This document shows positions 28,496 through 30,544 of a stretch of 64,000 nucleotides of DNA, piece after piece. The translations under genes were made by a program, and so were the position numbers. The notes below the pieces were generated by a model. That model saw only the letters and a program-made list of their open reading frames with translations. It made no database searches and had not been told where the DNA came from. Numbering within the stretch: the stretch's first letter is position 1; every line of letters begins with the position of its first letter. Source of the stretch: Myxococcales bacterium (GTDB taxonomy: Bacteria > Myxococcota_A > Polyangia > Palsa-1104 > JAEUJZ01); the NCBI GenBank assembly GCA_016794365.1, contig JAEUKB010000025.1:180693-244692 (forward strand), given 5' to 3'.

Positions 28496-29794
28496 CTAGG
28501 CGAGCTGAAAGAGCACCACCGGGGCTTCGCGGCCTTTGACCGTCACGGCGGGGAGTCGCTTGGCTGGGTATTCACCGGGTGGAAGCTGGGCGATGACTGC
28601 TTCGCTGGCCAGGATCTGGGCGTCGTGGACCTTGGTGAGCTGCTCAATGCGGGAGGCGAGGTTCACGGTGTCGCCGATGACGGTGTACTCTCTGCGCAGG
28701 GACGAGCCGACGCTGCCGGTGATGACATCGCCTGCGTGCAGGCCGATGCCGATGCGGGTGGGCGGGATCTGACCTGTGCGGGTGAGCTGGTGAACCTCGG
28801 CCTGAAGGTCGAGGGCGGCACGAACGGCGGACAGGCAGTGGTTTTCCGCAGGAAGAGGGGCTCCGAAGACGGCGAGAAAGCCGTCGCCCAAGAACTTGTT
28901 GATGATGCCGCCATGGCGATCCACCACCGCAACCAGCGGAGCAAACAGGGTGTTTAGGAAGGCGACCACTTCGCTGGGGGTTCGGGACTCTGAAAAGCGG
29001 GTGAAGTCGCGGATGTCGAGAAACAAGACGGTGACTTGGCGTAGCTCTGTGACCTGTCCGGCCTGTTCCGCGAGCAGTCGCTCTGCCACTTGGGGAGAGA
29101 CATGCTGGCCAAACATCGCCATGGTGCGGTCCCGCTCGACCACGACCTCGGCGGCGCGGATGATGCGGTGGCGTAGCGCGCGGCTGATGGTGGCGGCACC
29201 GAGTCCGCTGACAGCGAGGATTCCGCTGCGCAGATAGATGGGAAAGGGGGACAGAAACAGCGCGAGCGGACCACTGATGGGCTTTTGCAGAAGCAGCTTG
29301 GCCAGCGCGACATACTGCAAGGCAGCGACCAGCGCGACAAACAGAGAGACGCGCTCATCCAATCGCAGAATCGACACCATGGTCACCGCCAGATAGAGCA
29401 GCACGGGTGGCGCACTGAGTGCAAAGGCGGGACTTGATGCTCGTGCAATCAGCAAGAGCACCAGCGAGACGCCGCTTACCTCAATGAGGGAGTTGAGGAT
29501 GAGGTACAGACGCGGCAGCGCTTGTCCGCGCGCGATCTTGCGGTTCACATAATGCCGCGACAGCCAGCAGTAGATCGCAGCCAGCGCGGTGCCTTCACTG
29601 ACGATGGGGCTGATGGGAAGGAAGGCGCTGTTCTGCGCCCGGGACGCACTGGCTTTTAGAAACAGATACACCGCGATCGTCAGCGCAAAGCCGATGCTAA
29701 AGCCGACGGCCATCAGCGTGGCGCGGAGCCGTTCGGCTTGGACATACTCCAGCGCAAGCTGATCTTCGATCGCGCGCTGTCGTCCCTGATCCAT
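28496..29794 (-). CDS. Membrane-anchored class III adenylate/guanylate cyclase
   Basis: 6 predicted TM helices, then cyclase motifs VTVLFLDIRDFTRFSE, FLGDGFLAVFGAP, GLHAGDVITGSVG and YTVIGDTVNLASR. Confidence 0.8.
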   Translation of the reverse strand: MDQGRQRAIEDQLALEYVQAERLRATLMAVGFSIGFALTIAVYLFLKASASRAQNSAFLPISPIVSEGTALAAIYCWLSRHYVNRKIARGQALPRLYLILNSLIEVSGVSLVLLLIARASSPAFALSAPPVLLYLAVTMVSILRLDERVSLFVALVAALQYVALAKLLLQKPISGPLALFLSPFPIYLRSGILAVSGLGAATISRALRHRIIRAAEVVVERDRTMAMFGQHVSPQVAERLLAEQAGQVTELRQVTVLFLDIRDFTRFSESRTPSEVVAFLNTLFAPLVAVVDRHGGIINKFLGDGFLAVFGAPLPAENHCLSAVRAALDLQAEVHQLTRTGQIPPTRIGIGLHAGDVITGSVGSSLRREYTVIGDTVNLASRIEQLTKVHDAQILASEAVIAQLPPGEYPAKRLPAVTVKGREAPVVLFQLA

Positions 29795-29977
29795 GACCCA
29801 TCTTAGCGGCACGTAGCGCAGGGAGGGAATCGGCGAGACCGTGGGGAGAGCCGGGATCGTACTTTGCGCTTGGTGTGCGGACAGGTGCTCTTCAGCCTGC
29901 GGTGTCGGTGCCGATACGGGGGACGGTAGACAAGCCGACCGAACGCAGCGAAAATGGCAGGTCTTGGGAGGAATTGA

Positions 29978-30544
29978 ATGGAACAGTTGACGCTTTCCGC
30001 GCAGCAGGTCCGTAAGTTTTCCGCGCTGTTTTCGCGCTATGACCGCAACAGCGATGGCCTGCTGTCCGAAGAGGACTTTCGTGCGCAGGCGCAGCACATT
30101 CAAAAGGTCTTCGGCTGGGCGGATGATGACAGGCGGACGAAGCGGCTGTTTGTGGATCGCAGCGAGCTGTTTCACCGACTGGCGCGCGGAGCCGACAAAG
30201 ATCGCAGCGGAGCGGTGTCTCTGGAGGAGTTTCTGCGCTACTTCGAGCGACAGATTGTGGTGTTTCGCGCAGCAGGTGCGGCGTCACCCTGGCTTTCGTC
30301 ATCGTGTCGCGATCTGATCGACCTGATTGATGAAGACAAGAGCGGGGCGATCTGTAAGGAAGAGTTTCGGATGCTGCTTTCGGCGCAGGAATCGAGCGCG
30401 GATGCAGAGACGCTGTTTGGGAAGCTGGATCGGAACGGGGATGGTCGGCTGACGCTGGATGAGCTGCTGGCGCTGTCGTTTGAGTTTATGACGAGCGATG
30501 ATCCCCAGGCGCCAGGCAACCAGTTCTTCTGCGGGGACTTTTAG
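29978..30544 (+). CDS. Four-EF-hand calcium-binding protein (calerythrin/sarcoplasmic-CaBP-like)
   Basis: Four canonical 12-residue loops: DRNSDGLLSEED, DKDRSGAVSLEE, DEDKSGAICKEE and DRNGDGRLTLDE. Confidence 0.8.
   Translation: MEQLTLSAQQVRKFSALFSRYDRNSDGLLSEEDFRAQAQHIQKVFGWADDDRRTKRLFVDRSELFHRLARGADKDRSGAVSLEEFLRYFERQIVVFRAAGAASPWLSSSCRDLIDLIDEDKSGAICKEEFRMLLSAQESSADAETLFGKLDRNGDGRLTLDELLALSFEFMTSDDPQAPGNQFFCGDF

Follow-up and report, generated by a model that had tools for sequence, protein, structure and literature searches.

Calerythrin and the invertebrate sarcoplasmic calcium-binding proteins (SCPs) are considered to be Ca2+ buffers or slow sensors, and calerythrin is reported to bind three Ca2+ ions, with one of its sites being atypical. 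Major vault protein (MVP) homologues have already been described in Myxococcales (bioRxiv 10.1101/872010), in a preprint which, from its abstract to its early results, does not discuss gene neighbourhoods. Our literature search yielded no work that connects MVP with EF-hand neighbours or that deals with SCP-type proteins of myxobacteria. Here we analyzed a 64-kb stretch of a Myxococcales genome (contig JAEUKB010000025.1, positions 180,693 to 244,692; referred to as the window) in which the gene of an EF-hand protein lies between the genes of an MVP homologue and of a predicted membrane adenylyl cyclase. A first-pass annotation had read the EF-hand protein and the cyclase as a eukaryote-like Ca2+/cyclic AMP (cAMP) signalling pair abutting MVP. 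Comparison with relatives, whose contigs are labelled L001 to L038 (coordinates without a locus label refer to the window), points to a different explanation: the three genes are probably independent and have been juxtaposed by inheritance in one narrow lineage, not by shared function.

The stop codons of the EF-hand gene (TAG, 30542-30544) and of MVP (30548-30550, minus strand) face each other tail to tail and are separated by three bases (CGG), as had been noted before, and a terminator scan found no hairpin between the two convergent stop codons. Because the genes are convergent, they cannot be co-transcribed. The same arrangement was found in L001, L002, L005, L007 and L008, and in every context of an EF-hand homologue with at least 60% identity (L014-L016, L020-L024 and L031-L036). 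All loci with the adjacency belong to one narrow Polyangia clade in which MVP is about 82% identical or more, and within this clade the stop-to-stop gap varies from 3 bp to at least 100 bp. Two paralogous genes of about 570 aa upstream of MVP are conserved in all informative loci of the clade, and the genes of the cyclase, a BNR-like protein and a spermidine-synthase-like protein are also syntenic in the closest relatives L005, L032 and L033. Since these neighbouring genes are syntenic too, the EF-hand/MVP adjacency is part of a general block synteny.

Other MVP loci have different surroundings. L003, which is nested in the clade, has no EF-hand gene near MVP and differs on both flanks; the locus suggests that MVP was relocated there or is a second copy. 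In this locus (DAOLIT010000112.1, 8407-15076) MVP is 84% identical to that of the window, and the open reading frames (ORFs) downstream of it give low-complexity translations. The MVP loci L019 (73% identity), L004 (69%), L006 (64%), L018 of Polyangium (63%) and L017 of Minicystis (62%) have unrelated neighbours and lack an EF-hand gene. The same holds for L029, from a metagenome-assembled genome (MAG) of Planctomycetes, and for the readable upstream side of L030, from a Thermoanaerobaculia MAG. Neither the EF-hand loop pattern nor the Pfam model had a match near MVP in L003 or in any of these seven loci.

In the 6-8 kb covered around the genes of the next-nearest relatives of the EF-hand protein, there is neither an MVP nor a cyclase gene, and the relatives have no partner in common. 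The gene in L038 (54% identity), on a contig of 188 kb, lies among carotenoid and coenzyme A (CoA)-activase genes, that in L025 (48%) beside a P1B heavy-metal ATPase gene, and that in L027 (36%) among unrelated neighbours; L037 (38%) also has no MVP, but its contig is only 3.8 kb long and says little. A Ca2+ pump was considered for the neighbour in L025 and rejected, as the protein matches the P1B heavy-metal model TIGR01525 with E 6e-63 and the Ca-ATPase model with E 9e-6. Synteny, which had been proposed as a check on the locus, thus stands for the one clade and fails elsewhere: at the eight other MVP loci (L003 and seven distant ones) and the four other EF-hand loci, the adjacency did not recur in distant or independent lineages beyond block synteny. 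A meaningful EF-hand/MVP link is not what a clade-restricted adjacency within wider block synteny indicates.

The condition of MVP in some relatives bears on the same question. In one subclade (L007/L011, L008/L010, L014, L015, L020, L021 and L034), MVP is interrupted at about codons 504-512, and what lies next to the EF-hand gene is only the part of MVP that begins at about residue 504-508. In L014, L020 and L021, the gene of a tyrosine (phage-type) integrase is the immediate neighbour of this C-terminal fragment. In JBGAUT010000014.1, which carries L008 and L010, the N-terminal half of MVP is about 13.3 kb away, and the 13-bp sequence AAGAGCGGCATCT is found at both junctions. In L022 (10670-12967), MVP is reduced to fragments (roughly aa 373-750, with 63% identity, and aa 919-961) next to an intact EF-hand gene. 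Indeed, the EF-hand gene is intact in all loci with a split or degraded MVP, and the ratio of nonsynonymous to synonymous substitution rates (dN/dS) is 0.098 between L020 and L014, both from the split-MVP lineage. The interruption could be a simple disruption or an excisable element like those in sigK or nifD. If the element does not excise, these relatives keep an EF-hand protein that has no functional MVP beside it.

Several observations weigh against three independent genes with a Ca2+ buffer among their products. Wherever the downstream side is visible, EF-hand homologues with at least 60% identity are all tail to tail with MVP. The synonymous divergence (dS) between the window and the lineages bearing a cytochrome operon (see below) is about 1.4-1.8, which means that the two genes have stayed adjacent for a considerable time. 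Excision of the integrase element might restore MVP, and the split genes would then be a weaker argument. Moreover, some SCP-fold proteins are ligand binders or enzymes, not buffers. An adjacency present in all these contexts despite saturated synonymous divergence would fit a partnership, specific to this lineage, of a Ca2+-responsive EF-hand protein with the MVP assembly (as a cargo, or as a regulator of opening or assembly), with the gene order kept by selection. We consider such a partnership quite unlikely, because the genes are convergent, the surrounding block is syntenic as well (the upstream paralogues and, where contigs reach, the genes beyond the cyclase), the stop-codon gap is not constant, each gene is found without the other in L003 and in the more distant MVP and EF-hand loci, and purifying selection on the EF-hand gene persists where MVP is split or degraded. 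That an SCP-type protein was recruited in this Polyangia clade as a Ca2+-dependent regulator or cargo of a vault-like MVP assembly, with the tail-to-tail ends reflecting coordinated (e.g., antisense-coupled) expression, appears very unlikely.

The EF-hand protein itself is as first described, with four canonical loops. Pfam EF-hand_1 matches it in four stretches (E 1e-21), and the PROSITE pattern PS00018 matches at aa 22-34, 73-85, 118-130 and 151-163, and the pattern has no further match in any of the six frames of the window. Position 12 of the loop (-Z), where loss of the acidic residue in homologues had been named as a reason to doubt the sites, is acidic in all four loops of all ten homologues (58-98% identity). 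Loop III is the sole variable loop among the four: some homologues have R, C, E or Q in place of Gly at position 6. No signal peptide or transmembrane segment is visible in the protein. Compared with its relatives, the gene has a dN/dS of 0.10-0.24, indicating purifying selection and, therefore, a functional gene.

Calerythrin (1NYA) is the best sequence match in the PDB (E 1e-15 over 156 residues), which agrees with the calerythrin type assigned before. The next matches are juvenile hormone diol kinase (5e-13), calexcitin (6e-11), coelenterazine-binding protein and SCP (7e-6), and the matches of calmodulin type are partial (E about 1e-5). An AlphaFold model made with 11 homologues (predicted local distance difference test score (pLDDT) 88; predicted TM-score (pTM) 0.85) has a helix-loop-helix at every site. 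When the model was searched with Foldseek, calexcitin was matched with a TM-score of 0.83 (183 columns), juvenile hormone diol kinase with 0.77 and calerythrin with 0.69, whereas calmodulin structures reached only 0.46-0.47. These scores argue for a compact protein of the SCP superfamily and not for a calmodulin-like sensor of the two-lobe calmodulin/troponin C type. By its full-length homology and the single compact globule predicted for it, the EF-hand protein is a member of the SCP/calerythrin/calexcitin superfamily.

The C-terminal motif SDDPxAPGNxFxCG is common to animal juvenile hormone diol kinases and distant bacterial members, and is therefore a family feature rather than an MVP-targeting tag. 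The PGN motif common with the diol kinases, the top structural matches with calexcitin and juvenile hormone diol kinase, and further Foldseek matches with coelenterazine- and okadaic-acid-binding proteins are consistent with a protein whose hydrophobic SCP-fold cavity binds a small molecule or catalyzes a reaction, as happens in juvenile hormone diol kinase and the coelenterazine- and okadaic-acid-binding proteins, with Ca2+ as a modulator, so that it would be no simple buffer. This idea is compatible with the synteny of three independently inherited genes. Nevertheless, it is unlikely: the canonical sequence and the conservation of all four loops are what real Ca2+ sites typically show, the neighbours include no ligand-related gene with any consistency, and the identity to the enzymes is only 23-26%. 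Both the four canonical sites in an SCP-fold protein and the animal diol-kinase PGN motif in bacterial members are only mildly unusual.

A HMMER search of 1.84 billion cluster representatives returned 462 proteins at E <=1e-10 and five at <=1e-30. Many of the best matches are full-length proteins of about 180-190 aa, and long multi-repeat EF-hand proteins are also among them. From these matches, the family is uncommon yet scattered through bacteria, in line with the rarity claimed earlier for bacterial four-EF-hand proteins of the calerythrin type. The label 'eukaryote-like' does not fit, since related proteins of about 180-190 aa are found in Chitinivorax, Streptomyces and a Bacteroidetes MAG.

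On the other side of the EF-hand gene, the mechanical ORF of the cyclase (28496-30175, 559 aa) overlaps the EF-hand gene. In alignments with the cyclase of relatives (433 aa), residue 1 of the latter falls on the ATG at 29794; this ATG is therefore the true start of the cyclase, giving a protein of 432 aa. With this start, the cyclase and EF-hand genes are divergent and 183 bp apart. Rfam had no match in the whole window; thus, the intergenic region is not accounted for by a riboswitch or a small RNA.

Apart from the window, only its closest relatives L005 and L031-L033 have the cyclase directly beside the EF-hand gene. In L001, L002, L008, L014/L015, L020 and L022, an operon of about 8 kb separates the two genes, and in L016, L023 and L034-L036 the same operon lies beside the EF-hand gene and the contigs end before any cyclase. 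Besides a 420-aa protein and an 85-aa membrane protein, the operon (641-9717 in L014) codes for MtrC/MtrF-like multihaem cytochromes (816, 554 and 353 aa), a NapC/NirT-type cytochrome and a small cytochrome c. Its transcription diverges from that of the EF-hand gene, and the cyclase is the last gene on the operon strand. This position hints at a link of cAMP to extracellular electron transfer in the organisms that bear the operon. About 130 bp of the intergenic region (29796-29926) have no counterpart in the operon-bearing relatives; only about 50 bp upstream of the EF-hand ATG, including the promoter-like site, are similar between both arrangements (query 227-342, corresponding to 29927-30042). 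The conservation of these 50 bp whatever lies beyond fits an autonomous promoter of the EF-hand gene.

The divergent arrangement in the window and its four counterparts would suit a Ca2+/cAMP signalling pair of EF-hand protein and cyclase, with both genes expressed from one divergent promoter region and in analogy to calmodulin-regulated cyclases. However, neither the adjacency of the two genes nor a shared promoter region is conserved among relatives: seven cytochrome-operon genes intervene in other lineages, with the cyclase following the operon on its strand, the conserved upstream sequence is short and independent of what lies beyond it, and the more distant EF-hand relatives have no cyclase neighbour. 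The predicted fold is also of the compact SCP type and not a calmodulin-like dumbbell (0.83 vs 0.47). We therefore think that such a pair is highly improbable, and the 'pair' of the first-pass annotation dissolves once the operon between the genes in other lineages is taken into account.

It could also be asked whether the EF-hand gene is functionally tied to the divergent cytochrome operon, which adjoins it in most relatives, with the window being a derivative that lost it. The EF-hand gene is divergent with the gene of the 816-aa multihaem cytochrome in L014-L016, L020, L022, L023 and L034-L036. On the other hand, the gene is intact and constrained in the operon-less clade of the window and L005 (dN/dS 0.16), and the distant EF-hand relatives have no cytochrome neighbours. 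A tblastn search of the whole 64-kb window with the seven operon proteins of L014 gave nothing below E 0.4, and no relic of the operon or trace of a deletion was found. In a neighbour-joining tree of the C-terminal half of MVP, the window and L005 form the sister group of the operon-bearing lineages as a whole, and the tree therefore does not separate insertion of the operon from its deletion. A tie of the EF-hand gene to the cytochromes seems very improbable to us, and the independent inheritance of the three genes remains our preferred explanation.

Pfam Guanylate_cyc (PF00211) matches the cyclase with E 4e-27, and alignments to known structures reach E 4e-31 for 6FHT, 3e-29 for 2W01 and 8.5e-26 for 7YZI, the last covering transmembrane helices and the catalytic domain. 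Hydropathy alone assigns six transmembrane segments, with Kyte-Doolittle peaks at aa 27-45, 58-76, 98-116, 125-143, 151-169 and 177-195 (2.15, 1.33, 2.26, 1.93, 2.23 and 1.60, respectively; all but the second, at 1.33, reach at least 1.6). The six-helix module is joined by a short helical linker (HVSPQVAERLL) to the single catalytic domain. In the alignments with 6FHT, 2W01 and 7YZI, the metal-binding Asp residues are found in FLDIRDF and in GDG, and the transition-state Asn and Arg in VNLASR. The Lys in NKF is aligned with a Lys that was engineered into 6FHT and is a native Glu in 2W01; by this position, the guanylyl cyclase Cya2 (2W01) differs from the form converted to an adenylyl cyclase (6FHT). 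The Asp in the YDVWGD motif of 7YZI is matched by the Thr in YTVIGD. We take the Lys and Thr to be the substrate-defining pair of class IIIb adenylyl cyclases in the Linder-Schultz classification. As judged from these alignments, the catalytic residue set is complete for a class III cyclase, and the enzyme would be active and specific for ATP. The description of a six-transmembrane class III cyclase thus stands with its six hydropathy peaks and complete residue set; what had to be revised was the gene itself, for which the maximal ORF had been taken.

The features of the three-gene region are collected in Table 1. Horizontal acquisition of the EF-hand gene was considered; the GC content at third codon positions is 0.70 for the EF-hand gene, 0.73 for MVP, 0.755 for the cyclase and about 0.80 for several neighbours.

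Table 1. Coordinates of the genes, putative signals and protein domains of the EF-hand/MVP/cyclase region in the window
Feature	Coordinates	Strand	Basis
EF-hand gene; predicted cytosolic four-EF-hand protein, SCP/calerythrin/calexcitin superfamily	29978-30544	+	188-aa ORF
EF-hand loop I, DRNSDGLLSEEDF, position 12 = Asp	30041-30079	+	PS00018; kept in homologues
EF-hand loop II, DKDRSGAVSLEEF	30194-30232	+	PS00018; D73, D75, G78, V80, E84 invariant in 11 sequences
EF-hand loop III, DEDKSGAICKEEF	30329-30367	+	PS00018; least conserved site
EF-hand loop IV, DRNGDGRLTLDEL	30428-30466	+	PS00018; D151, D155, G156, L158, E162 invariant
Promoter-like site TAGACA-17-GAAAAT, sigma-70-like, 5' of EF-hand gene	29927-29955	+	Consensus match only
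Shine-Dalgarno-like GGGAGGA, 5 nt before EF-hand ATG	29966-29972	+	Read from sequence
MVP homologue, intact, 970 aa, convergent neighbour of EF-hand gene	30548-33460	-	Pfam
Divergent intergenic region between cyclase and EF-hand genes, 183 bp	29795-29977		Relatives compared
Cyclase gene, 432 aa, predicted membrane class III (IIIb-type) adenylyl cyclase	28496-29794	-	Pfam and homologue alignment
Cyclase membrane module, six hydrophobic segments, aa 27-195	29210-29716	-	Kyte-Doolittle; partly aligns with six-transmembrane mycobacterial 7YZI
Catalytic domain of cyclase, aa ~250-424, with residues D, D, K, T, N and R	28523-29047	-	PF00211; alignments with 6FHT, 2W01 and 7YZI

From these features, we propose that the EF-hand gene would be monocistronic, with its own promoter and ribosome-binding site, and would encode a compact, cytosolic protein that may bind up to four Ca2+ (or Mg2+) ions via its canonical 12-residue loops. 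The protein would most likely serve as a high-affinity Ca2+ buffer or slow sensor. The cyclase would be a homodimeric membrane adenylyl cyclase with the six-helix N-terminal module as a putative input domain, and MVP would be a stand-alone gene, its neighbours differing completely among Polyangia. We infer the binding of Ca2+, the role as a buffer, the specificity of the cyclase for ATP and the absence of physical interaction between the products from the comparisons given above.

The MVP homologue matches Pfam MVP_shoulder (E 1e-18), Vault_3 and Vault_4, and its C-terminal region of about 200 aa is rich in charged heptad-like sequence. By these domains, it belongs to the MVP family. Between the N-terminal domains and the vault repeats (aa ~235-350) lies a low-complexity insert of about 110 aa, rich in Pro, Ala and Gln, which varies in length and sequence among relatives. 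A scan for MVP in one genome per species gave 13 loci, all from Myxococcales or Polyangia MAGs, and a protein search gave hundreds of homologues, for example in Polyangium, Byssovorax and Minicystis.

Directly upstream of MVP and on the same strand are the two paralogous genes mentioned above (33652-35382 and 35552-37225, both minus strand), which encode proteins of about 560-576 aa with about 55% identity. Both proteins have no Pfam match, a lipoprotein-like N-terminus, many Cys residues and an DILFLIDNSPSMS motif resembling the metal ion-dependent adhesion site (MIDAS) of VWA domains. As these paralogues are kept 5' of MVP throughout the clade, they are by position better candidates for MVP partners than the EF-hand gene. 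In the Planctomycetes locus L029 (JACPWG010000184.1, 6001-15042), MVP is 60% identical and is followed by the gene of a TIR_2-domain protein with overlapping stop and start codons, and then by that of a large SAM/TIR/NACHT-like WD40 protein; such surroundings of a bacterial MVP are defence-like.

The cyclase heads a row of minus-strand genes for a BNR/sortilin-like protein, a membrane spermidine-synthase-like protein and a 1044-aa membrane protein. The window has a broken copy of the BNR/sortilin-Vps10-like gene 3' of the cyclase (26699-28446, minus strand): with the gene of L005, which is intact (742 aa), as reference, residues ~219-363 are gone and the two remaining parts are in different frames. 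This gene is either a pseudogene or the result of an assembly collapse of repeats. Further downstream, the region 22037-26757 (minus strand) encodes two membrane proteins, a polytopic one of 525 aa that has a spermidine-synthase-like domain and the one of 1044 aa, which has no Pfam match, and both genes are conserved in L005, L032 and L033.

If true, a link between the EF-hand protein and MVP would open the function of vault proteins, in bacteria and perhaps also in eukaryotes, to testing, and a recruited regulator or cargo would be the first handle on the role of bacterial MVP and on old claims of a calcium response of vaults. The comparative evidence points against the link, and the value of the result is therefore mostly negative: the EF-hand gene provides no functional clue for MVP. 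The apparent Ca2+/cAMP pair reflects a difference of about 8 kb between lineages. Regardless, the EF-hand protein is a clean new example of an SCP fold with four canonical sites in Myxococcota, and its PGN motif is of modest interest for the evolution of the family.

Among known systems, calerythrin of Saccharopolyspora erythraea (1NYA) and related actinomycete proteins (S. coelicolor 3AKA) resemble the EF-hand protein in being bacterial proteins of about 170-190 aa with four EF-hands in a compact globule. The identity to calerythrin is about 27%, the alignment stops at query residue 170 and leaves the SDDPxAPGNxFxCG motif outside, and, unlike in calerythrin, all four loops are canonical here. 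The invertebrate SCP superfamily (calexcitin 2CCM; diol kinase 7PJD and 6KTH; Nereis and amphioxus SCP 2SCP and 2SAS) contains the best structural match and aligns over the full length, including the C-terminal DDPxxPGNxxF motif. The identity is 23-26% and the host bacterial; the likeness seen here is one of sequence and fold, and does not speak for kinase, GTP-binding or neuronal roles.

The cyclase shares with Cya/Rv1625c (7YZI) and the catalytic domain of Cya2 (2W01 and 6FHT) a six-helix anchor, a helical linker and one catalytic domain that needs homodimerization. It differs from Rv1625c by a Thr in place of the substrate-defining Asp and by a membrane module that is only partly alignable; Thr at that position is a class IIIb feature in the standard classification. 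With its shoulder and vault-repeat domains and hundreds of relatives in Polyangia, the MVP of the window is a bacterial homologue of the kind already known from Myxococcales (bioRxiv 10.1101/872010), and the adjacency to an EF-hand gene described here is limited to one clade. Taken together, the EF-hand protein and the cyclase are further members of established families, the calerythrin-type proteins and the six-transmembrane class III cyclases, respectively.

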